Position numbers and translations under genes: made by a program
Shown here: positions 9,228 to 53,229 of the stretch, piece after piece
Numbering within the stretch: the first letter of the stretch is position 1
How the letters are laid out: every line of letters starts with the position of its first letter
Notes under the pieces: generated by a model
Told to the model about the DNA's origin: nothing
The model's database searches: none
The model's input: the letters and a program-made list of their open reading frames with translations, nothing else
Source of the DNA: a virus
Taxonomy: Duplodnaviria > Heunggongvirae > Uroviricota > Caudoviricetes
Strand: one strand, 5' to 3'
Length of the DNA: 64,000 bases
IMG/VR virus record: IMGVR_UViG_3300025000_000058

Positions 9228-9257
9228 AGTATAAAAACCTCCTGTTATTCTTTAATT

Positions 9258-9423
9258 TTAATTTTAAAATGCTTTTTAAAACCATTATTAAAAGCTTTAT
9301 TGCCTACACTTTTTTATATATGGATTAAAACAACATTTTTATTAAAATGCTCTTAGTTATCCATAGTCTAAGCAAATGCTAGCTTAAAACAATTATACAA
9401 TGATTTTAAAAAGCATTTTAATA
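9258..9423. repeat. long-range perfect inverted repeat (16 nt arms) bounding the start of the non-coding region
   Basis: AAAATGCTTTTTAAAA at 9260-9275 and its reverse complement at about 9404-9419, separated by roughly 125 nt. Confidence 0.45.
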
Positions 9424-10613: not shown

Positions 10614-10690
10614 CGAATTTAAAATATTAGCTTGCATTTGCTTAATATAGCTTTTGAAATCAGCTTTTTTCGTGAATTTAAAATATTAGC
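10614..10690. repeat. two direct 20-bp repeats GAATTTAAAATATTAGCT
   Basis: Copies at about 10615-10634 and 10670-10689. Followed by an AACCCTTACA...TGTAGGGTT hairpin and a T-run at 10699-10735 (terminator-like on the plus strand). Confidence 0.4.
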
Positions 10691-11224
10691 TATTTAAAAA
10701 ACCCTTACATAATGCGGGTTGTAGGGTTTTTGCAAAAAGTTTAAAAATTAAAATCAAATAAAAATTATGTTTTTTTGCTGATTATTTTAATAATCATTTT
10801 AAGGCTTTTTTAGACAGGTAAAAATGCTTGTAGGATATAACATACTTGATTTAATTTTGTCCTGCCTTAAACGGGCTTAAATTAAGGTTTAAATTGATTT
10901 TATAAAGATAGGGAAAAGGTATAATTTTAATGTGAGTTTAAAAAGCTTATTTTAAGGCTTATTTGAGAAGGTTTTTTGTTGGTAGCAGGTTTTTATATTT
11001 AGCATGGCAAAAAGTAAGCTTAAACCGCATTGTAGAAGGTTTAAAAGGTATTTTATAGGCAGGGAAAATATTATTACTTCTATTAGAAGGAAAAAAAGAA
11101 AAGCGATCCAGTGTTGCCGTCCCAACAACACACATATTTTTATTACGTTTTTTACTTGTATGACTACAAAAAATTCTCTCTCCCAGTTGGTTGTTTGGAA
11201 AATGAGAATGGTTCTCATTAATAC

Positions 11225-11400
11225 ATTACATAGTATTCATTACTACTTCACATAGTAACATATAATATAATTTTCAATACCACATAATATATCATATAGT
11301 ATTCATTTCTATTATAATAGTAATATATAACATAGTATTAATTATTCTATAACATATCATATAGTATTAAAAACTACTTTATATATTACCATGTAGCATA
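11225..11400. repeat. iteron-like direct repeats (CATAGTATT core, at least 5 copies)
   Basis: ACATAGTATTCATT, TCATATAGTATTCATT, ACATAGTATTAATT and TCATATAGTATTAAAA recur within 180 bp. Confidence 0.5.
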
Positions 11401-11557
11401 TTCCATATTATTATATTACATAATTTTAAATACTATATTCAATTCTGAATATTTTGAATTTATTGAATTATTTTATTTTTAAAACAGGTAAAAAGACAAT
11501 TATAACAAATGCATAAATTATATTATTTTGCGTTCTCTAACATCAATAAAGTAAAGT

Positions 11558-12021
11558 TAAAATTGATTTTAAAGCTATTAGAAGCTTCATACAGACACGA
11601 AAAGCTTTTTAGGTATTAAACCATTGGCAAAAAATTATACATAGGTTGTAGAGCAAATATCATGTACCAATGATTCTACAAGGGAAAATTCACTCTTGAC
11701 AAATGCTAAATATTATGATTCGCTGATTATTTTATGCATTTATCAGAATATTCTATTTATTTATGAATGGCACGTTTTTTGCTAATTCAAAAAGTATGCC
11801 AATAGAAAATAGCAAAAAATTATTGATTTTTTAATCAAAAGTTAAAATCAATTTTAAGGCTTATATAAGCTTCATAGAGAGGAATTAATACTTTTAGGTA
11901 TTAAACCATTGCTTACGCAAATTTCGCTGAATACAGACGATCCAACAATTAACAACCTTGTACCAATGATTATATAAGGGTTTTTTGCCTATTGACAAAT
12001 TAAAAATATTATGATTCGCTA
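11558..12021. repeat. two copies of a composite ~170-185 bp unit, each ending in a promoter-like TTGACA-17 box whose -10 hexamer is replaced by TTCGCT
   Basis: Unit 1 is about 11558-11724 and unit 2 about 11836-12021. Shared blocks are GATTTTAARGCTTAT, AAGCTTCATA.AGA, CTTTTAGGTATTAAACCATTG, TGTACCAATGATT and TTGACAAAT...AAATATTATGATTCGCT. A third partial unit lies at 12640-12780. Confidence 0.55.
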
Positions 12022-12099
12022 CATAGCGAAAAGGATAATTAGTTTTAATTGATTTTAGCATAAATCAGCGAAAAGAATTAATGGCATGATTTATGCAGA

Positions 12100-12600
12100 T
12101 ATATTTGATTATTAATATATTTAATTATCCATATATAATGGTTTTAATATACATGAAGAATATAATATAGTGATATACATATATTTGAATTATATAATAT
12201 ACAGATATTCATATATAGTATGATTAATATATAGTGATATTATTCTATATAATAATTAATATATAGTGATAATTAAATATTTGATAAATATAATATATAA
12301 ATATTCATATATACATTATTTAATATATACAGATAATTAAATATATTATATTTATAATATACAGATAGTCGAATATTCAAATATTATTATATACAATTAA
12401 CATTATATATTAATTATAATATATTTAATGATTATATTATACAATAAATAGTATATATTGATATTCAAATATTCAATATTTATAATATAATGATATTCAT
12501 ATATATAATTATCTATATATGGAATTATTTGAATATATAATTATTCGTATATTTGAATAATATATATGTATCATTTAATACAATTAATTGTCTCATATCA
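12100..12600. repeat. AT-rich degenerate tandem repeat block (ATATATAGTGATA / AATATTCATATATA / ATACAGATA motifs)
   Basis: About 500 bp at over 85% A+T, built from short reiterated motifs. Candidate DNA-unwinding element. Confidence 0.5.
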
Positions 12601-12797
12601 TACAATATGCATAATTCATGCCAGTATGATATGATACATTTTTTATTTTATAGCTGAATAGCTTTTAAAGTGATTTTAAGCTTCATATAGAGGGCTGAAT
12701 ACTTTTAGGTATTGTATGAGGTAAAATTATTTTTTGTGGCTGTATGAAGCTTATATAAAGAGGTGAAATAATTAGATATTATTTGATTTAATTAATA

Positions 12798-12890
12798 AAA
12801 TTAGTGTATTAGTATGCTAGTACACTTAAAACAGTAGTGTCTGACTATGCAAACAGATAATTAAATTAGTGTATTAGTACGTTAGTACAC
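12798..12890. repeat. two direct copies of a 28-bp palindrome-containing site (AAATTAGTGTATTAGTAYGYTAGTACAC)
   Basis: Copies at 12798-12825 and 12863-12890. Each holds a GTGTATTAG...CTAGTACAC inverted repeat. Confidence 0.55.
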
Positions 12891-12939
12891 CCAACGGAAC
12901 CGAAGGTGTAGTCTTTCAGCTTGCCTCTATCGTTACCCA

Positions 12940-13135
12940 TAACGAACAATGTTCCACGTGGAACTATTCCGCTATTCCGCAATTGCGTATGTCAGTTAAA
13001 AATTCTAATATTACGGAATAACGGAGCATCGTAACACTTCATAAATTACGTGATTCCGTAATGTCGTAATTATTACTTATTTCCGTTATTCCGTTCTTAC
13101 GTAATTTCGTAATCTATCCGTCCCTGCTTCAACTA
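12940..13135. repeat. cluster of CpG-containing short palindromes and TTCCG repeats (GTTCCACGTGGAAC, TTACGTAA, TTCCGYTATTCCG)
   Basis: A perfect 14-bp palindrome GTTCCACGTGGAAC lies at 12951-12964. TTCCGCTATTCCGC, CGGAATAACGGAG and TTCCGTTATTCCGTT are also present, plus several TACGTAA and CGTAAT sites. In a genome this AT-rich the clustering is highly non-random. Confidence 0.55.
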
Positions 13136-13164
13136 TTCCTGATAATATACATTATCAATAATAT

Positions 13165-13290
13165 TATAATGATTATCATTATCACTCTACATATAGTATA
13201 TTTCTCTTGTCAAATATCTATATATAGATTTTACCCGTATGACATACTATATATAGATTATTTTTAGCTTATACATACTATATATAGGGG
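13165..13290. repeat. three direct repeats of CTATATATAGATT(T)
   Basis: ATATCTATATATAGATTTT, CATACTATATATAGATTATTTTT and CATACTATATATAGGGGG. Confidence 0.45.
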
Positions 13291-13362
13291 GTACTTTACA
13301 CATTGGAAATAATTTCCATCGCCAGGGGATGCCCTAGCACTTAAACCCCGACACTACGTGTC

Positions 13363-13560
13363 GAACTATACAACTATACAACTATACTATTTACTTTATA
13401 CTTACTTTACAATCAATTAACCAACTTCTAACTTCTAACCAACTAACTAACCTCTCAATCAACTAATCACTTAACTATACAACTAAAACTTACCAATGTA
13501 ACATCAAATTATAACATTTAACATTATACCACTTATAAAATAACTAACTAAAAATCAGAT
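13363..13560. repeat. strongly G-depleted (plus strand) low-complexity tract with tandem AACTATAC and AACTTCTA repeats
   Basis: About 190 nt containing only 2 G residues. Includes (AACTATAC)x3 and (AACTTCTA)x2, AACTAACTAACC. The complementary strand is correspondingly C-free. Confidence 0.6.
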
Positions 13561-13860
13561 TAACCACGAAAAATTTTTGGGTTTAAATCACCTGAGAAGG
13601 GAAAATATGCCCTAAAATGACGGTTTTTTTATCGAACTATCTTCCTTTATTTAAAACGAATTATGACTACAACCTTAATAATTATATAAGGTATACAATT
13701 TTCACAACTGATATTTATATTATATCATTAATTAAACTGTCAATCAATTAATTTATTAATAACGGGGGCTATCTTTACACCACACTATACATTATACATA
13801 ATAATAAAATTTCTATCGAAATTTTCTTAGTTTTTTTTCTTGGTGTGATAATATATAGGG

Positions 13861-13890
13861 TTGACAAGGTTTATTCGTATTTTCTACAAT
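13861..13890 (+). promoter_or_regulatory. sigma-70-like promoter (TTGACA-17/18-TACAAT) pointing antisense toward the rep-like gene
   Basis: TTGACA at 13861-13866 and CTACAAT at 13884-13890. The downstream plus strand is antisense to 14068-14829. Confidence 0.4.
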
Positions 13891-14019
13891 ACGTATTGGT
13901 ATTTATATTGTAATATATATTGTAATATATACTATAATATATATAAATTTTTGTCATACACTCTCATATAGATATATCTCATCATAAACTGTTGGAGGTG
14001 TCATACAAATGTATCATAA

Positions 14020-14057
14020 AAATATACAAAAAAATAAACTGATATATAATCAGTTTA
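14020..14057 (-). terminator. rho-independent terminator of the minus-strand unit ending with 14068-14829
   Basis: On the minus strand the hairpin AAACTGAT-tatat-ATCAGTTT is followed by ATTTTTTTGTATATTTTT. Confidence 0.6.
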
Positions 14058-14067
14058 ATCATGTGTT

Positions 14068-14829
14068 TTAATCATTTAATAAATATTCTCTAATTTCATC
14101 TACTGTAAGAACGATAAACTTTAAACTTTCCTTTTTTTCTACAATACCATTTTCATCATAATATTTATACTCTTTATTATTCTTCTTAACACTTTCTAAC
14201 ACTTTGGCTTTCTTCTTATCACTGTTGCAGACTATTAGTATATGAGGAAATCTGTTTACCCTATTAAACCAATATTCATTTTCATAATCTCTATTTTTAA
14301 ATATCTCATTATAATTAATAACTTTCATAAATTCATTTTTACTCTCTACTCTATCGCTTTCAATTATAAAATACATATATTCATTATTAACATAATTTTT
14401 AAATCCAATAATACCGTCTGGTCTTCTACCACAATCCATAACATATTCTTTTTTCATATCTGAATACTTATAATACTTATATTCTTTTTCAACCATTTTT
14501 AACAAATAAAGAAAACCCCAATTTCTATTAATATCGTGTTCAAGAAACTTCGGTAATTTATCTACATAAAACTTATTACATTCATTTATATCTAATCTAA
14601 TGCTACTAATTTTCTTTCTACCTACTAACTTCCTTAACCTCTCTCTACACTTAATTATGCCATATTTAATTGAAGAAAAAAACAATAAATATACCTGTTC
14701 TGTTGTCAATACTTCATACTCTTCAATGGTTTCAACAATCAATTTATCTCGGTAATAACCTTTTTTTCTGGTATTCATCTTGTTGTCCATGTTGAAGGAG
14801 TCCTTTATTATTTCCACTGATTTGTTCAT
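14068..14829 (-). CDS. Replication-relaxation (Replic_Relax)-like protein with a possible PD-(D/E)xK motif
   Basis: 253 aa. Basic N-terminus and RRPDGIIGF...FIIESDRVESK (a PD...ExD..K arrangement). Size, composition and adjacency to an FtsK-like ATPase match Replic_Relax proteins of Firmicute mobile elements. Overlaps the upstream gene by 86 nt. Confidence 0.4.
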   Translation of the reverse strand: MNKSVEIIKDSFNMDNKMNTRKKGYYRDKLIVETIEEYEVLTTEQVYLLFFSSIKYGIIKCRERLRKLVGRKKISSIRLDINECNKFYVDKLPKFLEHDINRNWGFLYLLKMVEKEYKYYKYSDMKKEYVMDCGRRPDGIIGFKNYVNNEYMYFIIESDRVESKNEFMKVINYNEIFKNRDYENEYWFNRVNRFPHILIVCNSDKKKAKVLESVKKNNKEYKYYDENGIVEKKESLKFIVLTVDEIREYLLND

Positions 14830-19589: not shown

Positions 19590-19811
19590 TCAATTTGATA
19601 AAATTATTTTATTTGCTTCATATTGATTAAAAATTGATGAACTAATATCATAAATTTCATCTGAGCAATAACCAATCCAGCCATGATGATAATCAGACCA
19701 TTGTACTGTAAATGTGGCATAATTACCATCTATTGTTTTACCAAACAGTTTGTCACCACCATAAATTAATTTATTGTTTTTATCATAATAACCAGTTGAT
19801 TTTTTATTCAT
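19590..19811 (-). CDS. hypothetical protein
   Basis: 73-aa ORF. Confidence 0.35.
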   Translation of the reverse strand: MNKKSTGYYDKNNKLIYGGDKLFGKTIDGNYATFTVQWSDYHHGWIGYCSDEIYDISSSIFNQYEANKIILSN

Positions 19812-25902: not shown

Positions 25903-27624
25903 TTATAAGCTACTTAATACTCTGCCTCTGATATCTGCTAAACTATCATCTCTTAATAATTTGCCATCAACAAATACTTCTTCCAGTAAATCATCTGCTC
26001 TAAATAGAGCTTGTTGTGCAATTGATAATCCATCAATATATGTTATTTCATTTGTTGTTGAATCTTGAAGTACAACAACTCTGCCTTTTTGTGATTTTTT
26101 GATTTTGTCGAGATCAGTTTTCGGATTTTTAAAAATCAGTTTTTCTTTTCCATTTATTACTACGTGTGTTGCTTTAATAGCGATCATAAATGTATCTCTA
26201 CTATAATAACCTAGTGAATATGAACCTACACCAAATATAACATTTTCACTAGAAAATCCTTTTTGTTCTAGTTTTTTAAATATTTCTTCTGCTCTTTCTG
26301 GATTGATGCTGTCACCATATATAAGTGAAATATGTGAATCTAATACTTTATATCCTTTAGAATTAATTGTACCACCAAATATATCCCATAGTGATTCTAT
26401 TGAACCTTTTTGTTCTATAGTCAATTCTACTTCTTCACAACTTATTACCTGTGTATAATCAATATAATAATATTGTTTATCATACCTGTTCCATTCAAAT
26501 TCGACAATTATTTTATATATTTTATTATTATATTTGAAATACCCTTCATTTTTATCTACTCCATATTCTCCATGAGGTGTTTCATCTCTTACTTCTTCTT
26601 CTAAATATTCTTTCATCGTTTTAATACAATCATCTAATGTTTTACAATATTTATCATTTGTAAAATCTTCAACAATCACATTACCACAAATAATGTCAAC
26701 TGGATTGCCCGTATCTGGTCTTACGACCAGTTTACCATTTCTATTCATTATAATTTCTTTTAATTTTGGAATAATATTACCAATAACATTCCAATAATCA
26801 TATCCATCTGATACAATACTAACAATACCTTCAGGTACGATTTCAGTAATCATTTTTTTATAATATTTTAAATCATCCTCATATTGGCATTGAATCGAAT
26901 GCTCAGAAGCGAGTACGCTTGAAAATACTAGCTCTTCTTCAACATTGGCATTATAGTAATGCTCTAAATACTGAGTGCTTGGTATAGTATCTGAGCCTGT
27001 GAAATATAGTAAATGTCCTGCCCCTGTTGTTATTGCATCTTCATTGCAACCCATTCCTCTATAACTGAAGTTGTGACATTGCCATTTAATATGTTCTTTA
27101 CTATCGCATGTTTTTTCAGCCCATTTTTCACATATATCTCTATATTTTTTTACTATTGTTGTAGATGTTATTACTTTCCACATTGAAACACTTATAAGTG
27201 TTTCTAAATAATTTGTTAACCAATGAAATTCATTATTAGTATTTTCAATTGTAAACAATGGTGTTTTAATTGGTGCTAAAGTACCTTCTTTAAGAGCACG
27301 TATTTTAATTGGCAAATACCCTAAATCATGTAATGCTTCAATATGCTTAGTATCTGCACAATTATCCCCTAAAGTGTATTTAATAATTCTTTTATATTCT
27401 GTAATTACTTCTTCTTTGTTTCTACTAAAGAAATTTTCATTAAAGTATTCAATCAAATATTCTTTTATAAAACCTTGCAAACCAAAGAATACTACTTCAT
27501 TAATATCTTTTAATCTTGTCCCTCTTGGAGTAAATGTAGAATATGTTTTCTCAATTCCTTTTTCAGTCATAATTCTGTGAGATATTTTATAACAATCTAC
27601 TAATAACATTGGATTATATTTCAT
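25903..27624 (-). CDS. nadV: nicotinamide phosphoribosyltransferase (NAMPT, NadV-like)
   Basis: 573 aa. The N-terminal MLLVDCYKISH and overall length and architecture match NAMPT/PBEF. Conserved GTDT-like and phosphoribosyltransferase regions are present. Confidence 0.85.
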   Translation of the reverse strand: MKYNPMLLVDCYKISHRIMTEKGIEKTYSTFTPRGTRLKDINEVVFFGLQGFIKEYLIEYFNENFFSRNKEEVITEYKRIIKYTLGDNCADTKHIEALHDLGYLPIKIRALKEGTLAPIKTPLFTIENTNNEFHWLTNYLETLISVSMWKVITSTTIVKKYRDICEKWAEKTCDSKEHIKWQCHNFSYRGMGCNEDAITTGAGHLLYFTGSDTIPSTQYLEHYYNANVEEELVFSSVLASEHSIQCQYEDDLKYYKKMITEIVPEGIVSIVSDGYDYWNVIGNIIPKLKEIIMNRNGKLVVRPDTGNPVDIICGNVIVEDFTNDKYCKTLDDCIKTMKEYLEEEVRDETPHGEYGVDKNEGYFKYNNKIYKIIVEFEWNRYDKQYYYIDYTQVISCEEVELTIEQKGSIESLWDIFGGTINSKGYKVLDSHISLIYGDSINPERAEEIFKKLEQKGFSSENVIFGVGSYSLGYYSRDTFMIAIKATHVVINGKEKLIFKNPKTDLDKIKKSQKGRVVVLQDSTTNEITYIDGLSIAQQALFRADDLLEEVFVDGKLLRDDSLADIRGRVLSSL

Positions 27625-30261: not shown

Positions 30262-31098
30262 TTATAATTCAATAATATCAAATATATGCATTTTTTCAAT
30301 TGATATTTTTTCTTTATCTAAAATACTATTTGTAGTAAATACTTTATCAATTAAATCTGTTTGAAACAAATCTCCTTTAAAAATACTATATTCACAATGA
30401 GCAACAAATAAATATACTTCTTTTGCTCCCAATTCTTTTAATTTCTTAGCACTTATAATAAACGTCCCAGCATAACTTGATATATCATCCAAAATAATAA
30501 CTTTAGCATCTTTTATTAAATTAATATCCCCTACAATATCTAATTTATCAATTTTACCTGTGTTGAAGTCTCTTGATTTATACCCCACTAAATATTTAAA
30601 ACCTTTAATATTTTTATGTGCTTTCGCACTTCCATCATCAGGATAAAATAATATATCTTTTTCTTTATCAAATCCAATTTTATTCATTACTTCACCTAAC
30701 AATTCAATTGTTGGGTATACTGCTGTACTTTTATTCAATAAAGCCATTGATACATTAGAATGTGGACTAATGACTACAACACTGTTAAAATTTAATGAAT
30801 TAATAAAATTACAAATATATTTTAAAGTGAATGCTGAAGTTGTTTCATAATACCCTTCAACTCTATCCATTCTTGAGTATGGTAAATATAATATCTTTAA
30901 ATCACAGTCAACTCCTAAATTATTTTCATCTATATAATTTTTAAGAAACATTAATTTGATTAAATCACTTTCATCTTCATATTTAAATGTAATTTCATTA
31001 TTTATATTTATATCTCTCCAAATTTGTTCATTATCTATTCTAATTTCTCCATTAGGGTATTTTTCAAAATTAAGTCTTTCACCATTTAATAAAATCAT
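30262..31098 (-). CDS. prs: ribose-phosphate pyrophosphokinase (PRPP synthetase)-like
   Basis: VIILDDISSYAGTF PRPP-binding loop. Two-domain phosphoribosyltransferase-type architecture of about 280 aa. Confidence 0.65.
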   Translation of the reverse strand: MILLNGERLNFEKYPNGEIRIDNEQIWRDININNEITFKYEDESDLIKLMFLKNYIDENNLGVDCDLKILYLPYSRMDRVEGYYETTSAFTLKYICNFINSLNFNSVVVISPHSNVSMALLNKSTAVYPTIELLGEVMNKIGFDKEKDILFYPDDGSAKAHKNIKGFKYLVGYKSRDFNTGKIDKLDIVGDINLIKDAKVIILDDISSYAGTFIISAKKLKELGAKEVYLFVAHCEYSIFKGDLFQTDLIDKVFTTNSILDKEKISIEKMHIFDIIEL

Positions 31099-41608: not shown

Positions 41609-42061
41609 CTAAATTATTTTCCCTGTATCTCTTAACTTCATTAATCTACTACAAAATTCTTGCTCTGTTAATACTGTATGTGATTCATCATTTTTTCCAC
41701 ATGAATGTCTCAATACAGCATTCCTTGTTGAATTTAATGCTCTTCTAAATCCTAAATTTTGGTTATATAATTCTTGATATGCTCTATCTAATAATTCTTG
41801 ATATTTTTTTGAATGTCTGTCATAGGTTACGCCTTGCCAATATAATTTTTGTTCTTTCCACCATTTTTTATTTTTACCTTTATATTTAGCTGGTAAACCA
41901 CTTAATGAGCAAACATATTTCTGTATTTCAATATCTGAAAATTTAAAGCTTTGTAATAGCCCTTCCATTCCAGCAACTTCAATATTATCAAAAATAAATT
42001 TATTGTGTGCAAAGTTGCTTAATTTTGAAGCAGGGTATCCCATACCGCTTTTAATATCCAT
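41609..42061 (-). CDS. NADAR-domain (YbiA-like N-glycosidase) protein
   Basis: GYPASKLSNFAHNKFIFDNIEVAGMEGLLQSFKF matches the NADAR N-terminal signature (F..G..LSNF ... E..xQAxKF). 150 aa. Confidence 0.6.
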   Translation of the reverse strand: MDIKSGMGYPASKLSNFAHNKFIFDNIEVAGMEGLLQSFKFSDIEIQKYVCSLSGLPAKYKGKNKKWWKEQKLYWQGVTYDRHSKKYQELLDRAYQELYNQNLGFRRALNSTRNAVLRHSCGKNDESHTVLTEQEFCSRLMKLRDTGKII

Positions 42062-42083: not shown

Positions 42084-42455
42084 TTAACAATAACAAGATT
42101 CTCTATCTATTTTATCTAACTTATCTTTATCAATAATTAAATTAACTTCTAATCCCAATATATTTCTTAAATCAAAATCTTTTTTCCTATCAAATTTACT
42201 TCCCCAATATCCTACTTCTTTTGCTTGTAAATATATTCTATTTTCATCGCTTATTACTCTTATACTTATTATTTGAAAATAATGTTCTTTATTTTCATAA
42301 TTAATACTTAATTTACTATTAATTGTTATATTTTCTTCAGTTACAATATTAATAATAGTCCCCAATTTATCTTGAATTTCTGCTCCTATTATTTTAAATG
42401 TATTCATATTATTTATCCCCTTTACTTTTTTATAATAATCGTAATCCTTTAACAA
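42084..42455 (-). CDS. hypothetical protein
   Basis: 123-aa ORF. Confidence 0.4.
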   Translation of the reverse strand: MLKDYDYYKKVKGINNMNTFKIIGAEIQDKLGTIINIVTEENITINSKLSINYENKEHYFQIISIRVISDENRIYLQAKEVGYWGSKFDRKKDFDLRNILGLEVNLIIDKDKLDKIDRESCYC

Positions 42456-42999
42456 ACATTTTAGCTTGCTCCCTTTTCATTGGCTTTAAACCAATTGCTG
42501 TAATACTACCCTTTGGCACTTCAGTTAATCCATTATCTCTTACACTATAAAAATCATATGGGAATTTATTTAATAATTTTTCTATTGTTTTTGTATTTGC
42601 TTTTAATACAATTTTTTTCATCCCATTGTCAACCCATTCACTATATACTAAATCTTCACGCTCTCTCCAATTACTAGGTATGTCAATTGTTGTTAATGTA
42701 TTTATATGTCCTACTGATACTGCTATTTTTCCAACACTCATATTTAAATCCGTATTAACAATATAATATTGAAGTACTTCTTGATTTCTCCTATATTCTT
42801 CATCAATCTTTGTTGATTTTTTTTCATCTTCAAAATATGCATTACAAAGTAATCTCAATACTTCCATTCCCTCAATTCCTGTTACTACTTTACTTTCTAA
42901 TTTAACTACTCCATCTTCTTTTATACATCTTCCTAATTGTCCTACTTTTTGAGAAGTATTGTATTTACAAAGCATCCAATCACAAATAATTTCTGGCAT
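42430..42999 (-). CDS. PTH2-family peptidyl-tRNA hydrolase domain protein with N-terminal Cys-containing extension
   Basis: VNTDLNMSVGKIAVSVGH aligns with PTH2 TDLGMGKGKIAAQCSHA, and VRDNGLTEVPKGSITAIGLKP aligns with TDAGRTQIAPGSQTVLGIGP. Confidence 0.6.
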   Translation of the reverse strand: MPEIICDWMLCKYNTSQKVGQLGRCIKEDGVVKLESKVVTGIEGMEVLRLLCNAYFEDEKKSTKIDEEYRRNQEVLQYYIVNTDLNMSVGKIAVSVGHINTLTTIDIPSNWREREDLVYSEWVDNGMKKIVLKANTKTIEKLLNKFPYDFYSVRDNGLTEVPKGSITAIGLKPMKREQAKMFVKGLRLL

Positions 43000-46464: not shown

Positions 46465-46651
46465 TGTATCAGTCCTTTATTTTCTAATTAAAAAAAGAAA
46501 AATACAATTTATAAAAGCGATACCAACTATTATATTATCTGGTTGATAACCAAAAAACAAAGATATAAATAACCCTGTCCACCATAACGCAAATAAATAA
46601 TTAACATATTTTAACATCTTATTATTCCTCCTTTTAAAGTATTAATTTTGG

Positions 46652-46981
46652 TTATACTATATCATCATAATCAATACTTCCTTTACTGCTTACTGTAGCT
46701 TTCAAAGTCTTTTTAGGTGTTTTCTTAAACTTCATTAATAAATCATCTTGTTGTTTTTCTTTTCTTTTTCTTTTAGTTTTTGGTTTTAACAATGATACTA
46801 CTGTCAATCCATCGAGCATTTCTCTTAATCCAACTAAATATATTGTCATACCTAAACCTAATTCAAATACTTCTATGGTTAATTTATCATATTGTACTTG
46901 TGTTATTATTCCTACGCAAACTTTATATGTTTCAAATTCATCAGATTTTCCAAGTGTAGTTTTATATTCAACTTGTACCAC
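46652..46981 (-). CDS. hypothetical protein
   Basis: 109-aa ORF. Confidence 0.4.
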   Translation of the reverse strand: MVQVEYKTTLGKSDEFETYKVCVGIITQVQYDKLTIEVFELGLGMTIYLVGLREMLDGLTVVSLLKPKTKRKRKEKQQDDLLMKFKKTPKKTLKATVSSKGSIDYDDIV

Positions 46982-47061
46982 ACTATACCGATTTTATAAA
47001 AATTTTTACAAAATGTTGGTGTTTTAGCTACTCCTTCAATAATTCTACCATTAATTTTCAT

Positions 47062-47406
47062 TTATTTATCCTCCTTCTTTTTCCTTGGTTTTCTTTTCTT
47101 TTTACTACTATCTACTACAACGCCATCAAATCTTTGTACTTCTTTGCAATTTGCTTCTTCTCTATAATGACATTGATCACATATCCCTGCATTTTTCTTC
47201 GGTGGATTAAAACAAACATTTAATGGATATTTTGGTTTTCTATTTAATATTTTTCGACCACCAACAATTATATATTCTTCTTCTATTTGTTTTGTTTCAG
47301 TTTGAGTTTGAGTTTGAGTTTGAGTTTGAGTTTGAGTTTGAGTTTGAGTTTGAGTTTGAGTTTGATTATCCACTCCTTCTATATTTAATATTTTATCATT
47401 ACTCAT
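47062..47406 (-). CDS. protein with (QT)n repeat and C-terminal zinc knuckle
   Basis: QTQTQTQTQTQTQTQTQTQTQ is encoded by a GTTTGA hexamer tandem repeat. CDQCHY...C. Confidence 0.45.
   Translation of the reverse strand: MSNDKILNIEGVDNQTQTQTQTQTQTQTQTQTQTQTETKQIEEEYIIVGGRKILNRKPKYPLNVCFNPPKKNAGICDQCHYREEANCKEVQRFDGVVVDSSKKKRKPRKKKEDK
47299..47364. repeat. (GTTTGA)n hexanucleotide tandem repeat, about 11 copies, inside CDS
   Basis: Direct reading of 47299-47364. Confidence 0.9.
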
Positions 47407-47503
47407 ATAATTTCTAATCTCCCGTCTGTATCTTTATATAGTATAACTTAATATTTTATATTTGTCAAGAATAAATTTAAAAACAATTTTATTATTATGT
47501 ATA

Positions 47504-47875
47504 TTACTTTGTTTTAATTTTTTTAGATTTAATATTTTCAAATTTTTTACTGAAACATTTACTAAATAGTTCTACATTATCTACTGAACAATCTATACAA
47601 ATTCCATTCATCCCATCAGGATTACCAAATCCTGAACATTCTTTCTTCTTTTCTAATTTCTTTTCTTTATTATTGAGTATTTTATATTCTACTTCGATTT
47701 TTGTGTCTACATGATCCATAAACATAAATGGGTCATCTTTAATGCAAGATATATCAAATTGAACCGCTTCTTCTATTGTTTTACAATCTTCCATTCCTTG
47801 CATATTTTGATAATCTTTTAAATCAATTTCATATGCTCTTTTTATATATACTGTGAATTCTACTTTTTTCTTCAT
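47504..47875 (-). CDS. hypothetical protein
   Basis: 123-aa ORF. Confidence 0.4.
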   Translation of the reverse strand: MKKKVEFTVYIKRAYEIDLKDYQNMQGMEDCKTIEEAVQFDISCIKDDPFMFMDHVDTKIEVEYKILNNKEKKLEKKKECSGFGNPDGMNGICIDCSVDNVELFSKCFSKKFENIKSKKIKTK

Positions 47876-47877
47876 AA

Positions 47878-48129
47878 TTATTTTATCTCCTTATATGTAA
47901 GCCATCCTTTAGGATAACAACGTCTTATTACTCTTAAACCAATTATACTTTGTATCTGATGTATTCCGTCAACAAATTCTTGCAACTCATTTGGATGTTG
48001 TAATTCTAGTTTTAATATTTCTTTATGACAATCTGATAATTTATCCATTATTAATTGTTCTTGTTCAGTTAATCCCATTATATTTTCTTCTTGTGATATA
48101 ATATTCTCTGCGTTTATTTTATCCCACAT
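47878..48129 (-). CDS. hypothetical protein
   Basis: 83-aa ORF. Confidence 0.4.
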   Translation of the reverse strand: MWDKINAENIISQEENIMGLTEQEQLIMDKLSDCHKEILKLELQHPNELQEFVDGIHQIQSIIGLRVIRRCYPKGWLTYKEIK

Positions 48130-48177
48130 TTATATTATTCTCCTTTAATCTAAATAAGCTTAACATATTATTACCTC

Positions 48178-48837
48178 CTAATATTTATATAACCATTTCC
48201 ACCAACCAGTATTACTTGCCATATTTAAACATTCCCATTTACATTTATCATATTGTCCTTTTATATTTACATGATAATGACCAAAATAGTATTTTCTTAT
48301 ACTCGGATACATTTCTAATATTCTTGACAATGCAACTCTACTACAATCTTTATGTTTTTGAGTATCTTTGAATCTATCTCCTAAATCAAATTCTAATGGA
48401 CATGTATGTGATATTACGATATCTATTTTTGTATTTGTTGAGGGAAGATTCTCAAAATCTTTTTGCGATATAACTTCTTGCGGAAACCAGTCTACTCCAA
48501 TTGTTCTTGTATTTTTATCAATTGATTCAGCACCACCCATAAACAGTACAACTTTCCCATTGGGAAGAGTTAATGTAGAACCACGTTTCATATAAAATAT
48601 ATTTGGTGCAATTTCATTATTTGTAAGAGTATTTAAATAATCATGGTGTTCATGATTTCCATCTGCAAAATATATTTTACAATCACCGTTTTTAATTTTA
48701 TCTAAAGAACATTCTTTATGATATGGCCATATTCCAAAGTCTCCACATTGTAATATAATATCTGGTTTTTTCTTATTTATTAAAGTATTTAATTTATTCC
48801 ATTCTGCATGAATATCTCCAACAATTATTAATTTCAT
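48178..48837 (-). CDS. calcineurin-like metallophosphoesterase
   Basis: MKLIIVGDIHAEW (motif I GDxHG), QCGDFG (GDxxDRG-like) and GNHEHHD (GNHE). Confidence 0.75.
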   Translation of the reverse strand: MKLIIVGDIHAEWNKLNTLINKKKPDIILQCGDFGIWPYHKECSLDKIKNGDCKIYFADGNHEHHDYLNTLTNNEIAPNIFYMKRGSTLTLPNGKVVLFMGGAESIDKNTRTIGVDWFPQEVISQKDFENLPSTNTKIDIVISHTCPLEFDLGDRFKDTQKHKDCSRVALSRILEMYPSIRKYYFGHYHVNIKGQYDKCKWECLNMASNTGWWKWLYKY

Positions 48838-48853
48838 TTATTCATTTCTCCTT

Positions 48854-49444
48854 TTAATTAAATAATTCATAATTATTTTCTAATTTTCCATCTCCAACAA
48901 TAAATATTTTACTTCCACAATCATATAAACAATCACTAATTTCTTTTATATTTAAAGATATAATATAATCATAATAACTACTTTTTACCCTTATAAATCT
49001 CATTGTTTCATATCCTCTTTTTATCCTAATTACTAAATTATAAAATTTATAAGCTTCTCTAATAACAATTGCATTGTCATTCATTTTTAATCTTTTAATT
49101 TTCTTTTGAATAAAATTGAATTGTTTTCTATTTTCTTTAATATCTTCATCATCCCAATATTTTGTTTTCTTAAAATCTGCTCCATCAACATCAATAACTC
49201 TAATAGCATCAAAATGGTAAGGAAAATTTTTATCATAACCTTTACATGTTTCACAAAAATGACTTGTGATAAATAAATCATTTATTCCCCATTGAGTATA
49301 TAGCTCTTGATATATTTTATTAATAATACTTAATGGAATTTTCTTTTTTGTTGAAGTTTCAATATTATACCCATAATTTTTACCTGCATAATCAACAAAC
49401 CATTTTATAAACTTATTAAAGTATATTCTTTCAAATCTTGTCAT
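48854..49444 (-). CDS. hypothetical protein
   Basis: 196-aa ORF lying between the phosphatase and the ligase-like gene. Confidence 0.4.
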   Translation of the reverse strand: MTRFERIYFNKFIKWFVDYAGKNYGYNIETSTKKKIPLSIINKIYQELYTQWGINDLFITSHFCETCKGYDKNFPYHFDAIRVIDVDGADFKKTKYWDDEDIKENRKQFNFIQKKIKRLKMNDNAIVIREAYKFYNLVIRIKRGYETMRFIRVKSSYYDYIISLNIKEISDCLYDCGSKIFIVGDGKLENNYELFN

Positions 49445-49567
49445 TGTTTTTACTCTCCTTTTTATTTGATTTATTAAGTAATTTTTAATTCATTTTTAAT
49501 TAAAGCATTATTTTTCCAATGAATATCTGTTTGCACATGATTTTTTCTAACATACTTAACAACTGAT

Positions 49568-50119
49568 TTATAAAAAATCATCTACAATAAAACTGTCTTT
49601 TATTCTAATTACATATCCTTCTTGTAAGCCACCGCATTTACTTATCCCTGTAAACAAGTTTTTAATAATATCTATATTATATATTCCTTCATACAAAATA
49701 GGAACAGTTTGTAAATTTAATAATTCACACCATTCTAATGTTTCTTCCCACGACAAACAACAATCATTTTCCCATATTGAAAATACTAATAAATATGATA
49801 GCAATTCATTATAACGAATACTATGCTTAGCATATAAATTTTCACCACAAACTCTATAATTTTCAGGTATATCATGTTTTATTATGCTATGTAGTTTTTT
49901 AATTGCATGTTGTGATATATGATTTTTACTGTTTATTGAACGAGCATGGTAATAATTAAAATATAAATTTGTATTTTCACCATCCATTTTTTCTGTTACT
50001 ACAATCTCTTTGTTATAAAAATTAGATAAATCATATAATACTTTATCATCAGATGATATTCCTTCTGACCAAGGTAAATGTAATGTTCTAGGATATTTAT
50101 ATAGTTTCATAATGCTCAT
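49568..50119 (-). CDS. RNA-ligase-like covalent nucleotidyltransferase (minimal, NTase domain only)
   Basis: YKYPRTLHL followed by VVTEKMDGEN (motif I KxDGxN) and GLQEGYVIRIKD (motif IV EGYV plus K). 183 aa. Confidence 0.5.
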   Translation of the reverse strand: MSIMKLYKYPRTLHLPWSEGISSDDKVLYDLSNFYNKEIVVTEKMDGENTNLYFNYYHARSINSKNHISQHAIKKLHSIIKHDIPENYRVCGENLYAKHSIRYNELLSYLLVFSIWENDCCLSWEETLEWCELLNLQTVPILYEGIYNIDIIKNLFTGISKCGGLQEGYVIRIKDSFIVDDFL

Positions 50120-50122
50120 TCC

Positions 50123-50485
50123 TTATTCTTTTTTACTTTTACACTCATATTCAACACATTTCCCTAATCTTCTACTTATAATCTCTCTTAAAAACTTTTG
50201 CTCCCAATCCATAAACCCAATTGGGTGCTTTGTTAATTCACAATATTTATTCACAGCTATTTCATGCTCATTAAATATAAAACATATTTCATCAATAGAC
50301 AATTCACCTCTGGATACTAGCACTCTTAGTGCTTGAATGATATTATTTGTTGATACTTTTATAATTATATCTCTATTATTTTGTTCAATTTTCTTTTTAT
50401 ATTGGTCTATTATAAACTGTGCATTTTCAAGAAGATTAAAATCTGAATATGGATTACCTTGTTCACAATATATAATTTTTAGCAT
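50123..50485 (-). CDS. hypothetical protein
   Basis: 120-aa ORF. Confidence 0.4.
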   Translation of the reverse strand: MLKIIYCEQGNPYSDFNLLENAQFIIDQYKKKIEQNNRDIIIKVSTNNIIQALRVLVSRGELSIDEICFIFNEHEIAVNKYCELTKHPIGFMDWEQKFLREIISRRLGKCVEYECKSKKE

Positions 50486-50502
50486 AATTTTTTATCTCCT
50501 TT

Positions 50503-51444
50503 TTAAAAATTAACATAATCTCCACCATTTTCTATTTTACTTTGCAATGGCTTATAATATCTTTCTATTGTTGTATTTATATTACTATGTCCTACAAAAC
50601 GCTGAACTACTTCAATTGGTGCTTTATTCATTAGCATCTGAGTAACACACGTTTTCCTAAGTGTATGAGGACTAACATCTTCAATTTCAACTTTTTTACA
50701 CCACTTCTTTAATATTTTAGACACATTATCCGCTGTCATTGGAAATAATAAATCATTTGATACTCCAAACTCTCCTCTCTTATCAAAATAATCCTTTAAC
50801 AATTTCATTAATTCTGTATTTACTTTTATACTTCTTGCTTTTCTTCCTTTGGCTTTAACAATGGTTAAATAATAACAGCCAATCATTTCATCATAATTAA
50901 AATCATTCATTCTAACATTAATCATTTCACTTCTTCGGAGTCCAAAATTCAATAAACATTTAATAAGTAAATATTCTGATTGTTTATTTCCTTGTTTAAC
51001 CATATCTAATAACTTTTCAACTTCTTCTTTACTCAAAGCTCTGCCAGAATCAACATCATTCTTATCAAGATTTAAAAACATATGTTCTTTAACAACTTCA
51101 TTTCCAAAAGGATTTATTTTAACATCATTATTAATTGCCATTGTGTATTTATAAAATGAATTTAAAGTTGAAATACGATTTCTTATTGTGTTACTGCTTG
51201 CCCCTTTGTCAACCATCTCATTAATAAAATTTTCTATATTTAAGATACCAATTTCTTTAACCATATCAATTGTAATGTGTTCAAGATGATTTACTTTAAA
51301 AAATACCTTTAGTGTTTGAGAATATGATCTTTTTGTTTCAGCACTTTTAAATCTGTTAATGAATCTTCCTCCAATATCTTGATTTATTTTATCTTGATTT
51401 AATGTAATAACTTTGTTTAAGGCTGTATTCATTTGTGTTTGCAT
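50503..51444 (-). CDS. int: tyrosine recombinase/integrase
   Basis: Catalytic box GLRRSE...HTLRKTCVTQ...VGHSNINTTIERYY carries the R..H-x-x-R..Y signature. 313 aa. Confidence 0.85.
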   Translation of the reverse strand: MQTQMNTALNKVITLNQDKINQDIGGRFINRFKSAETKRSYSQTLKVFFKVNHLEHITIDMVKEIGILNIENFINEMVDKGASSNTIRNRISTLNSFYKYTMAINNDVKINPFGNEVVKEHMFLNLDKNDVDSGRALSKEEVEKLLDMVKQGNKQSEYLLIKCLLNFGLRRSEMINVRMNDFNYDEMIGCYYLTIVKAKGRKARSIKVNTELMKLLKDYFDKRGEFGVSNDLLFPMTADNVSKILKKWCKKVEIEDVSPHTLRKTCVTQMLMNKAPIEVVQRFVGHSNINTTIERYYKPLQSKIENGGDYVNF

Positions 51445-51461
51445 TTATAAAACCTCCATTC

Positions 51462-52232
51462 TTAAAATACATATCTATCTATATAATTTCTATCTTGAGT
51501 AAATATAGGAATTTCCTTATCTATAATCCATCTAGTTCTCATTGTACCTTCTTTGTCATATTGTTCTTTAATAACACAACTACCACGTTTCTGATAGGCA
51601 GGAAAATCATTAAAATTAATACCTTTCTCTTGAAAAAGCATTTCTTGTATTTGATTACAATTTTTATTTTGTAATTGTTTATGACTAAACTTTGCACTGC
51701 CAACCATTTGAATAGCATTTCTTGTAGCGTCTTGTTGTCTCCAAATAAATGCGTTGCATACTTCTTCTTTTGGAATATTAAATACTCTTGAATCAAATAA
51801 AGCGGTGTTAAATCTTTTTTGATAAATATCAACATAATCTGATATATCTTCTAAATCAATTTCATCATATATATTTCTAAATATTTTATTAAATGCTAAT
51901 GTTGCCATACTAGCAGACACAGATACCATTTTTTGTACATTATAATTAAACCATCCTTGTGTTTCAATTGTATCATAATCTGTCATTAACAATGTTATTT
52001 CATCACTCTGAGTATATGCTAATTTACAACCTTGTATGTTTTCGCATAAATACTTTGCTGTCTCTTGCATTGTAGCAATCATAATTTCATCAAATGGCTT
52101 TTGAAATCCTTTAGTAAATGTGTGAAATGACTTTCCATCAATTCTTACTAGCACTGGTACATTATTTAATATATAATTTCTATTTACATTTTCATAATTT
52201 TTCATGCGACTTCCAAGTGCATCATTTTTCAT
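51462..52232 (-). CDS. Thg1-like tRNA-His guanylyltransferase family 3'-5' nucleotidyltransferase
   Basis: VPVLVRIDGKSFHTFTKGFQKPFDE and AYTQSDEITLL match the Thg1 palm-domain motifs (RxDGxxFxxF, SDE). Confidence 0.8.
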   Translation of the reverse strand: MKNDALGSRMKNYENVNRNYILNNVPVLVRIDGKSFHTFTKGFQKPFDEIMIATMQETAKYLCENIQGCKLAYTQSDEITLLMTDYDTIETQGWFNYNVQKMVSVSASMATLAFNKIFRNIYDEIDLEDISDYVDIYQKRFNTALFDSRVFNIPKEEVCNAFIWRQQDATRNAIQMVGSAKFSHKQLQNKNCNQIQEMLFQEKGINFNDFPAYQKRGSCVIKEQYDKEGTMRTRWIIDKEIPIFTQDRNYIDRYVF

Positions 52233-52247
52233 TTTAATTTCCCTCCA

Positions 52248-52487
52248 TTAATTTATATTTTCAATTTCTATATCTTTATTACATTGTTTACATTTTACTT
52301 TAAATACTGCACCAACTGCATCATAACAACCCATACAGCCATCCCATATAATATGACAATCAATATTAAAACCAATACTTTTATCATCGTTTATTTCATA
52401 TAAATCATATTTATCTAAATCTTTATCAATTGTGATTCTATTTCCACAGTCACATTCAATTATAATTTTCAATATTTTTACCTCCAA
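52248..52487 (-). CDS. zinc-ribbon protein
   Basis: CDCGN...CKQCN. 79 aa. Confidence 0.4.
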   Translation of the reverse strand: MEVKILKIIIECDCGNRITIDKDLDKYDLYEINDDKSIGFNIDCHIIWDGCMGCYDAVGAVFKVKCKQCNKDIEIENIN

Positions 52488-52671
52488 AGTTTTAATATTT
52501 TGTTATTCTATTATTATACCATATTTTTCTGAGTATTGCAAGCATTATTTTATCAATAGACGGCTTGATATTTTGTCACTGTCAATTTATTATTGATAAT
52601 TATAGCATATGTTGTTATCGAATGCAATATGTTATTTTTCATAATTCAAATCATAATTTTAAATCAAAAAA

Positions 52672-52698
52672 TAACTTCCTTATTATAATAAGGAAGTT
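52672..52698. terminator. perfect 11-bp-arm hairpin in divergent control region (bidirectional insulator/terminator-like)
   Basis: AACTTCCTTAT-tataa-TAAGGAAGTT. A T-run follows on the minus-strand side. Confidence 0.4.
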
Positions 52699-52940
52699 TT
52701 AAAATAAAATTATATGAGAGGTCGCTTTAATAATAGCAAGTTAATCATGAGAAAGCTAATTCACTGAAGCCTTCAACAATTAAAATTGGTTAATAGTATT
52801 TTGTCCGACTCCAAAGAAGTTTATGCATTTTATATTATATAGGAAGAGATAGGATTTTATCTGTTTTTAATATAGGGGGTATTGTGTTTTTGTTAATGGT
52901 CGGGCGTAAGCGTAGTTAAGGATTATTTATTATATAATAG

Positions 52941-52969
52941 TTGACAATGATAAAATATTATGCTATAAT
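52941..52969 (+). promoter_or_regulatory. strong sigma-A-type promoter with extended -10 (TTGACA-17-TGcTATAAT)
   Basis: TTGACA at 52941-52946 and TATAAT at 52964-52969. The spacer contains the conserved AAAATATTATG. Confidence 0.7.
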
Positions 52970-53046
52970 AAGTAAAATATAATTATATAAAAAGGAGAGA
53001 GATAAAAGAGCATTGATGAAATTATTAAAAAAGAACACCTACAACA

Positions 53047-53229
53047 TTGGTTAAAGATTTAGTTAACCATAATTTTGTAAAAAATATTGAAGCAGAATTA
53101 GAATTTACCTTAAATAATTATAATTTAGTTGTTATTGAATCTAGTGACTATACAGAATGCCATAATGATTACGAAGTTATAAGAAAAACATTAATAATAA
53201 TGGAGGCGATTAAAAATGAATATAAATAG
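53047..53229 (+). CDS. hypothetical small protein (TTG start, weak support)
   Basis: 60-aa ORF with no clear RBS. Confidence 0.25.
   Translation: MVKDLVNHNFVKNIEAELEFTLNNYNLVVIESSDYTECHNDYEVIRKTLIIMEAIKNEYK

Follow-up and report, generated by a model that had tools for sequence, protein, structure and literature searches.

Whether a phage can mend broken RNA with enzymes of its own is the question raised by a minus-strand locus (47062-52487) in a 64-kb stretch of Caudoviricetes DNA, IMG/VR record IMGVR_UViG_3300025000_000058 (the whole of this stretch is called the window below). A preliminary description of the locus had proposed a mobile heal-and-seal cassette for tRNA, consisting of a Thg1-like protein (TLP), a minimal RNA ligase and a calcineurin-type metallophosphoesterase (hereafter the phosphoesterase), with a tyrosine recombinase and two open reading frames (ORFs) of 120 and 196 amino acids (aa), ORF120 and ORF196, lying among them. 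All of these ORFs are present on the minus strand where they had been placed (Table 1), the Pfam families Thg1, RNA_ligase, Metallophos and Phage_integrase all match, and the motifs RIDGKSFHTF and SDE of Thg1 and KMDGE and EGYV of the ligase are all present. Our analysis, in which the counts of homologues come from viral and bacterial loci elsewhere, supports an RNA-repair theme at the locus but not a complete mobile heal-and-seal cassette. The explanation that we prefer, with moderate confidence, is that the locus, the promoter-proximal part of a leftward run of nine genes, carries components of a toolkit for repairing the ends of RNA, probably of tRNA, as predicted for large phages, and that the sealing arm of this toolkit is most likely inactive.

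The Thg1-like protein, the interrupted ligase gene and the phosphoesterase

The established activity of bacterial and archaeal TLPs is the repair of 5'-truncated tRNA in vitro. The Thg1 ORF of the window scored 113.6 bits against PF04446 (cut-off, 29.2 bits) and 26.0 bits (1.1e-05) against Thg1C, just below the cut-off of 26.3, and it matched phrog_4717, the PHROG family of Thg1 itself, at 1.1e-99. It aligns over its full length, including the C-terminal part, with the TLP of Bacillus thuringiensis (BtTLP; 4kgk, E 2e-78), the N-terminal 120 residues without gaps, and the matches to eukaryotic and archaeal Thg1 are weak, indicating a protein of the bacterial type. Residues E14, R30, D32, K45, S76, D77, and E78 correspond to E12, R28, D30, K43, S74, D75, and E76 of BtTLP, in which D30, D75, and E76 are metal-binding carboxylates and the others are nucleotide-binding or activation residues, K43 and S74 being the counterparts of activation-step residues defined in yeast and human Thg1 (PMC3701042). 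The acidic residues of the active site, the possible loss of which had been a concern of the preliminary description, are thus in place (D32, D77, and E78 in the alignment with 4kgk). Judging from this alignment, the Thg1 ORF looks intact, all of the catalytic residues checked being conserved. With BtTLP (4kgk/4kgm) the window protein shares the length class, an alignment from end to end, all three carboxylates of catalysis, and the residues of activation and transfer; it differs in being phage-encoded and in having a 16-residue insertion after about residue 123. By analogy with the biochemistry of BtTLP, it would be the working core of the toolkit, which would activate a 5'-monophosphate RNA end with ATP or GTP and would then replace the 5' nucleotides missing from the acceptor stem of a tRNA, with the 3' strand serving as template. 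Thg1 had been called rare in phages. It is indeed uncommon (164 of 50,697 GenBank phage records, mostly large Bacillus, Prevotella (Lak), Caulobacter, Mycobacterium, and Fusobacterium phages), but it is also well known, with homologues in at least 586 IMG/VR stretches and a PHROG family of its own. An apparent split of Thg1 in the environmental contig L105 is a scaffold gap of Ns, not a mutation.

The ligase gene is interrupted by a +1 frameshift at a run of six T residues (T6; Table 1). The ORF as it stands open (49568-50119, minus strand, 183 aa) matches RNA_ligase (PF09414) at 3.8e-30 and RNA-ligase PHROGs at about 1e-58, and its jumbo-phage homologues in Caulobacter phage CcrBL9 and Acinetobacter phage ME3 run about 34 residues past its end. 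After T6, the +1 frame would follow DDF with YKSVVKYVRKNHVQTDIHWKNNALIKNELKIT up to a stop at 49474, in agreement with the invariant C-termini of the homologues, and the corrected ligase has the peptide ...FIVDDFYKSVVK... across the frame junction. This corrected protein of 214 aa has about 5,800 homologues, with which it aligns along 95-98% of its length; those listed cover 94-100% of it and are nearly all 202-226 aa long, a full-length member of the family having about 205-220 aa. In an alignment of 32 sequences, motif I (K44-M-D-G-E) and motif IV (E167-G-Y-V) are invariant columns, and so are K188, V190, R191, H194, H200, W201, and N209, all of which come after the shift. K188-x-V-R takes the position of ligase motif V; it is encoded in the +1 frame and not in the frame of the ligase ORF, which stops 13 residues past EGYV. 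The length of 183 aa, previously understood as a nucleotidyltransferase domain alone, is therefore an artefact, because the frameshift ends the ORF before motif V: the family as a whole is a minimal stand-alone clade of about 210 aa, uncharacterised so far, and the copy in the window is an interrupted member. Neither sequence nor profile searches gave a significant match of this family to a solved structure.

Because T6 occurs in every sampled copy, the frameshift is real. The run is identical in all nine environmental contigs that span the site, which come from several independent assemblies (ENA, JGI, and Logan), and a sequencing error is thereby ruled out; haplotype L105 has the same T6 despite seven single-nucleotide differences in the ligase gene (four amino-acid changes and two synonymous). 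Reassignment of a stop codon was rejected as the cause of the short ligase, the interrupting codon being TAA. Among the 120 ligase homologues listed, none has the truncated length except P0001, the near-identical copy of the phage itself (99% identity, 180 aa). As far as the sequence allows us to judge, the most likely state of the gene is that it is inactive or yields only traces of product. In the toolkit the ligase would be the sealing arm, which the extra T, by placing motif V out of frame, would leave inactive or reduced to a trace product made by slippage.

The metal-binding motifs of the phosphoesterase are intact (GDIHAE, GDFG, GNHEHH, SHT, and GHYH, for GDxH/GD/GNHE/H/GHxH), and G7, D8, H10, G32, D33, G60, N61, H62, H144, H187, and H189 are invariant in the family alignment (A6). 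A profile of eight family members, compared with solved structures, had its best match in Dbr1, the RNA lariat debranching enzyme (7e-07, along the entire domain); Mre11 (3e-04) came second and lambda phosphatase (0.016) third, and the single sequence weakly matched the Dbr1-related domain of CWF19L1. Such a profile is compatible with an RNA phosphodiesterase and does not fix the substrate. In the proposed toolkit, this enzyme would free broken RNA ends of the phosphates that block them (2',3'-cyclic, 3'-phosphate, or 2'-5'-linked), a role assigned from gene association only.

Partners of the ligase and of Thg1 in other genomes

The ligase family has a frequent companion in bacteria, for which 80 species-representative loci were compared. 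In Brevibacillus and Bacillus cereus, a gene for a 320-aa protein with an AAA_33 (P-loop kinase) domain and an HD domain (kinase+HD) overlaps at its end with the ligase gene. In 43 of the 80 loci the end of a kinase+HD homologue lies upstream of the ligase at a distance of 100 nt or less, and a kinase-domain match lies about 0.8-0.95 kb downstream of it in 10 more, a distance that fits an HD-then-kinase order; both gene orders together, kinase+HD adjoins the ligase in 53/80. Judging from this arrangement, the family is probably the sealing partner in a widespread bacterial two-gene heal-and-seal operon. Operons of this type are known from Runella slithyformis, in which HD-Pnk has an overlapping upstream ligase (Munir and Shuman type; PMC6097658); the Runella ligase self-adenylylates but sealed no substrate tested (PMC6097658). 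Compared by gene arrangement, the two are alike in that the ligase family stands beside kinase+HD in both orders, ligase-then-HD-kinase included, whereas the window, by a scan for Walker-A motifs, is without a kinase+HD partner, and its ligase gene is frameshifted.

Among viruses, the ligase is encoded in at least 355 IMG/VR stretches, and all ORFs within 6 kb of it were clustered for the best 80 of these. The neighbours that recurred most were Thg1 (7 loci), an AAA_33 kinase (7), a fusion of GGDEF-like and NT5C domains (7), NAMPT (7), two Metallophos families (5 each), an HD protein (5), and Rnl1 (4), where Thg1 was named by tblastn, NAMPT, NaPRT, and NMNAT by N-terminal sequence motifs only, and the others by Pfam. 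When 20 window proteins were used as tblastn queries within 10 kb on either side of the 80 viral ligases, Thg1 (8/80), the phosphoesterase (7/80), and LigA, the NAD-dependent DNA ligase (1/80), recurred; the recombinase, ORF120, ORF196, PTH2, gp30.3, and RecD2 were never met in that range, and the window proteins that did not recur serve as an internal control.

Two kinds of fusion protein were seen around these ligases. One, represented by a 352-aa protein (locus L053, 5599-6657), joins a GGDEF-like palm domain (5e-06) to an NT5C/HAD phosphatase domain (8e-06); it is uncharacterised and is the fusion that, in neighbourhoods with a repair theme, stands no farther than 6 kb from the PF09414 ligase at 7 of the 80 viral loci. 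In the other, the ligase domain itself follows an N-terminal HNH-like Cys/His domain of about 145 aa, as in CcrBL9 (L001, 7569-8648), ME3 (L002, 7548-8627), and the metagenomic P0112, in agreement with the "Rnl2 with N-terminal HNH" that appears among the ligases of a jumbo-phage survey (Iyer et al., 2021; PMC7824862).

The eight viral Thg1 loci closest to ours share no neighbour with the window save LigA or gp30.3, and no annotated repair partner lies near Thg1 in phages Fnu1, PMBT8, and Bcp1. For a wider view, 80 viral Thg1 loci were drawn from the IMG/VR stretches and partners were sought within 10 kb, bacterial kinase+HD proteins serving as tblastn queries on the comparison loci, where matches occur. 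Kinase+HD was found at 28 of the 80 loci, the phosphoesterase family of the window at 15, LigA at 13, and a PF09414 ligase at 0. Ten of these 15 phosphoesterase genes follow Thg1 at a distance of 0.6-2.3 kb downstream, and after collapse to 23 lineages (70% Thg1 identity) the phosphoesterase is present in 8 and kinase+HD in 9. By eye, an HD-like ORF adjoins Thg1 in L149, and PTH2-like ORFs (N-terminal motif RKDLxMSPGKLAAQ) lie between or beside Thg1 and the phosphoesterase in L156 and L178; with the window PTH2 as tblastn query, 1 of the 80 Thg1 loci (L154) gave a match. From these counts, the recurring elements are Thg1 with the phosphoesterase and/or kinase+HD, and the numbers describe a tendency, not an obligate system. 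In the window, the interval of 2.6 kb between Thg1 and the phosphoesterase is filled by the recombinase, ORF120, the ligase, and ORF196.

What the genes may do together

Much of this was foreseen by comparative genomics. Anantharaman, Iyer, and Aravind (2010; PMC2904730) describe polynucleotide kinase, Macro domains, and RNA ligase as neighbours of Thg1, and suggest, in their passages on phages, that Thg1 is used for RNA repair against host defences. The jumbo-phage repertoire of RNA repair, as set out in the relevant parts of Iyer et al. (2021; PMC7824862), includes Rnl2-family ligases, some with N-terminal HNH, calcineurin-like and HD phosphatases, sporadic Thg1, and PTH2, with a predicted role in counter-defence. 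Since its components were already predicted in such surveys, the locus belongs to a known, computationally predicted kind. The same components are met at the window locus; on the other hand, in the sections of the two surveys that concern RNA repair, neither singles out the pairing of Thg1 with a metallophosphoesterase or a frameshifted ligase. New here are the frameshift of the ligase, the link of its clade to kinase+HD operons, the recurrent pairing of Thg1 with the phosphoesterase, and the exclusion of the recombinase, ORF120, and ORF196 from the mechanism.

Phage T4 repairs PrrC-cleaved tRNA-Lys with Pnkp and Rnl1. In CthPnkp (the Pnkp/Hen1 system of Clostridium thermocellum), a calcineurin-type metallophosphoesterase is described as the agent of 3' healing (PMC2190708). 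The logic of healing broken RNA ends and then sealing them is common to the T4 and Cth systems and to the set of genes in the window. The window differs in being without a kinase (Walker-A scan), in having a stand-alone PF09414 ligase and not Rnl1 or Rnl4, in a phosphoesterase nearer to Dbr1/Mre11 than to lambda phosphatase, and in the addition of a 3'-5' polymerase.

Several observations weigh against our preference for a partial repair toolkit. No polynucleotide kinase was detected in the 64-kb window by the Walker-A scan, the sole check made, in which the motif-bearing ORFs were FtsK-like, RecD2, PhoH, and a 73-aa ORF (19590-19811) with a chance-like motif; PrrC/RloC-type 5'-OH ends are therefore not healable by the genes seen here. 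Neither Thg1 nor the metallophosphoesterase occurs at any of the 80 bacterial ligase loci, and a PF09414 ligase is absent from all 88 viral loci centred on Thg1 (the 8 closest and the 80). The phosphoesterase family is also common in actinophages (311 records), where it lacks these partners, and the groundwater variants L105 and L108 have in-frame phosphoesterase deletions of 16 and 28 codons (window 48519-48600) at about residues 79-107, just past the GNHE motif. The counts of association are modest, and shared ancestry inflates them (many of the Thg1 loci come from one metagenome and may belong to related phages), and because LigA lies downstream of Thg1 in 13/80, synteny may reflect a DNA-metabolism region and not a shared function. 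Scans of the window for tRNA, tmRNA, and Rfam families gave nothing, neither tRNA genes nor Rfam matches. Lastly, low-level +1 slippage at TTT_T is possible, so that the inactivity of the ligase is something we infer.

It seems to us unlikely, though well short of far-fetched, that Thg1, the phosphoesterase, and the ligase relic are independent genes, coincidental neighbours in an accessory region, the phosphoesterase acting on DNA ends or on immune signals, nucleotide or 2'-5'-linked, instead of on tRNA. The surroundings are indeed the usual auxiliary genes of a large phage (LigA, PTH2, gp30.3, NAMPT, PRPP synthetase, radical SAM, PhoH, and RecD2), and NAMPT, NaPRT, and NMNAT, as named by motif, are as frequent near the ligase as repair genes are; of 20 window queries, however, only Thg1, the phosphoesterase, and LigA (1 locus) recur there, and kinase, HD, and Rnl1 genes likewise cluster around it. 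For the phosphoesterase in particular, Mre11 is the second-best PDB relative of the family, PADLOC gave only one weak match (to the candidate defence model PDC-S10, 1.4e-07), the gene is common in actinophages that lack the partners, and degradation of nucleotide signals by calcineurin-like phosphodiesterases is proposed in a part of the jumbo-phage survey (PMC7824862). Its position 0.6-2.3 kb downstream of Thg1 in 10 loci, and the link in 8/23 lineages, weigh against this reading.

We regard as improbable the model put forward in the preliminary description, a working heal-and-seal cassette in which the phosphoesterase heals the 3' end, Thg1 rebuilds the 5' end, and the ligase seals. T6 would then have to be decoded by programmed +1 frameshifting or transcriptional slippage, and the kinase would lie elsewhere or be unneeded, as it would be where the nuclease leaves a 5'-phosphate. 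It is true that these genes are closely packed in a single run, that both Thg1 and the phosphoesterase are recurrent neighbours of the ligase homologues of phage contigs, and that, the genome being at least 174 kb, a kinase could sit outside the window. The three genes together, however, were found in 0/160 ligase- or Thg1-centred viral loci, and the Walker-A scan gave no kinase. What is left of the proposed cassette is an intact-looking Thg1, a ligase family that is the partner of kinase+HD, and a phosphoesterase that recurs near Thg1 (15/80); what fails is the frameshifted ligase, the kinase missing from the window, and the co-occurrence of all three.

The ligase gene speaks on both sides of this model. 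The stretch of 32 codons downstream of the shift is open, with all of the invariant residues retained, and a +1 slip of tRNA-Phe on TTT_T, which permits perfect re-pairing, would restore the ligase frame exactly. On the other side, T6 is a short run for slippage during transcription. The stop codon does not occupy the A-site, as it does in the classical prfB-type +1 shift, but comes two codons past the slip site, and no stimulatory RNA structure was found, the local fold being no more stable than shuffled sequences (z -0.29); a hairpin pairing U6 with a downstream A6 was also considered as a stimulator and rejected, its energy being no better than that of shuffles. The truncated length is confined to the own copy P0001 among the 120 listed homologues, and the four non-synonymous against two synonymous codon changes between ligase haplotypes are as expected under relaxed constraint.

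A further idea, which we offer tentatively and think doubtful, is that Thg1 and the Dbr1/Mre11-like phosphoesterase would be a conserved two-enzyme module for rebuilding tRNA 5' ends once host nucleases have attacked them, to which kinase+HD or PTH2 would be added in some lineages, T6 of the ligase being a slippage-prone expression switch; in a variant, the phosphoesterase would be a 2'-5' phosphodiesterase directed against branched or 2'-5'-linked immune nucleic acids.

Finally, a mobile cassette, in which the tyrosine recombinase would carry Thg1, the ligase, and the phosphoesterase together from one genome to another, is hardly credible: the recombinase does lie between Thg1 and the ligase, and the ligase, ORF120, and ORF196 are missing from the Thg1-phosphoesterase interval of related phages, but no convincing att-type direct or inverted repeats were found in 46500-53200, the recombinase occurs at none of the 160 ligase or Thg1 comparison loci, base composition is uniform, the gene is embedded in the probable transcription unit, 17 nt from its neighbour on either side, and similar XerC/D-like genes are ordinary in large phages. 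It keeps the catalytic residues R..K..HxxR..H..Y (GLRRSE, HTLRKT, and GHSNINTTIERY in the translation), matches NCBIfam XerA/XerD/XerC at about 1e-36, all under cut-off, and has similar recombinases in Geobacillus virus E3, Bacillus phages Stahl and Basilisk, and Enterocloster phages. It is probably a phage housekeeping gene outside the repair function.

Under the explanation that we prefer, a partial repair toolkit with an inactive sealing arm, the locus points to concrete partners for Thg1. One is the metallophosphoesterase, which follows Thg1 in about a third of the sampled phage lineages; the second candidate is the ligase family of about 210 aa whose cellular partner is the kinase+HD healing enzyme. 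If these enzymes cooperate, phages could rebuild damaged tRNAs besides replacing them with tRNA genes of their own. For the present phage the value is lower, as its ligase gene is broken, a kinase is missing from the window, and comparative genomics has put forward the general idea before.

Surroundings of the locus and the source phage

Table 1. Positions in the window of the genes and sites discussed in the text.
Feature	Position	Strand	Remarks
Promoter-like site TTGCAA-17-TG-TATAAT	52513-52541	-	Consensus match only; upstream of first ORF of the leftward run
Small Cys-rich ORF, 79 aa	52248-52487	-	First of the run; without significant Pfam or PHROG family
TLP, predicted 3'-5' template-dependent RNA polymerase, looks intact	51462-52232	-	Pfam Thg1 PF04446, 7.7e-33
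XerC/D-like tyrosine recombinase, 313 aa	50503-51444	-	Phage_integrase, 3.1e-31; SAM-like N-domain (SAM_1)
ORF120, 120 aa	50123-50485	-	phrog_12026 (function unknown), 1.9e-07; without Pfam family
Stand-alone ATP-dependent RNA-ligase-family gene, about 214 aa if read through	49474-50119	-	Interrupted by +1 frameshift
T6 run (GAT GAT TTT TTA TAA), frameshift site	49572-49577	-	T5 would restore ...DDF-YKSVVKYVR...
ORF196, 196 aa	48854-49444	-	Not a recognisable healing enzyme; without Pfam family
Calcineurin-type metallophosphoesterase, 219 aa	48178-48837	-	Metallophos, 3.6e-13; phrog_1649, 5.9e-34
Two small ORFs, 83 and 123 aa	47504-48129	-	Last of the run; without Pfam family
Second promoter-like site	47440-47468	-	Consensus match; with 52513-52541 brackets the nine-ORF run
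PTH2 peptidyl-tRNA hydrolase, translation-rescue gene outside the locus	42430-42999	-	Pfam PTH2, 3.4e-19

From about 52,500 leftwards the window carries a long minus-strand gene run, and a divergent plus-strand gene set begins at about 53,050. Nine ORFs are packed between 52487 and 47504 on the minus strand with intergenic gaps of 2-48 nt; because of these gaps and the bracketing promoter-like sites, which are consensus matches, they probably form one transcription unit. The 83-aa ORF near its end matches phrog_13916 (labelled "DNA ligase", a profile of 67 positions) at 1.4e-16, and in L108 it has an 11-nt deletion at 48028-48038.

The preliminary description had suggested looking for kinase or phosphodiesterase folds in ORF120 and ORF196. 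No such fold was recognised in either, and both occur elsewhere without repair genes; together with the recombinase they are lineage-specific genes between Thg1 and the phosphoesterase, outside the mechanism. ORF120 is in frame with the ligase ORF, lying 3 nt upstream of it with a TAA between them. The possibility that it is a detached N-domain of the ligase was rejected, as BLASTP gave no similarity to the HNH-like N-domains of CcrBL9 and ME3; that its homologues are found among series of small ORFs where no ligase is present is further evidence against its being part of the ligase. Its AF2 model (pLDDT 62) was too poor for a structure search.

The flanking gene content, made up of the auxiliary genes named above, is typical of a large phage, with a match to phrog_1735 at 1e-254. 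The T4 gp30.3-family gene (41609-42061) and PTH2 stand on the same strand, 5-7 kb downstream. A gp30.3 homologue directly follows the kinase+HD/ligase pair in B. cereus (locus L017, 6908-7351), and another lies 6.6 kb from Thg1 in locus L007; gp30.3 may be a further recurrent companion of these repair genes. The NAMPT and PRPP-synthetase genes (25903-27624 and 30262-31098) make up a NAD-salvage set.

A divergent control region at 52500-53050 separates the leftward from the rightward genes. On its plus strand, positions 52941-52969 match the sigma-70 promoter consensus perfectly (TTGACA-17-TG-TATAAT), and its minus strand has a hairpin resembling a terminator at 52673-52698; the promoter region at 47433-47487 is a 55-nt imperfect inverted copy of this region. 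Farther to the left, about 4.8 kb of very AT-rich DNA (9227-14068) is nearly without ORFs of 90 aa or more on either strand. Degenerate tandem repeats with units of 16, 32, 48, and 96 nt lie there at 12099-12580, with others at 11215-11400 and 13219-13944; no Rfam or tRNA match was found in this region, and reading TAG or TGA as sense opens no ORFs. It could be an origin, a regulatory region, or a non-coding RNA locus.

The G+C content is 25% for the window, and composition is uniform through the locus. The phage recurs in groundwater metagenome assemblies (samples of PRJNA268031, for example, carry it), with identical proteins on contigs of up to 173,928 bp, and one JGI contig is 100% identical to the window across 8.6 kb; no DNA near-identical to the window was found among GenBank phages. 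The source is a large (at least 174 kb), uncultivated groundwater phage with 25% G+C. A perfect (GTTTGA)x12 repeat at 47294-47365, inside the ORF at 47062-47406, encodes (TQ)n in a small Cys-containing protein. This repeat is hypervariable between environmental contigs, giving proteins of 104 and 114 aa, and L101 has about 100 nt more of it.

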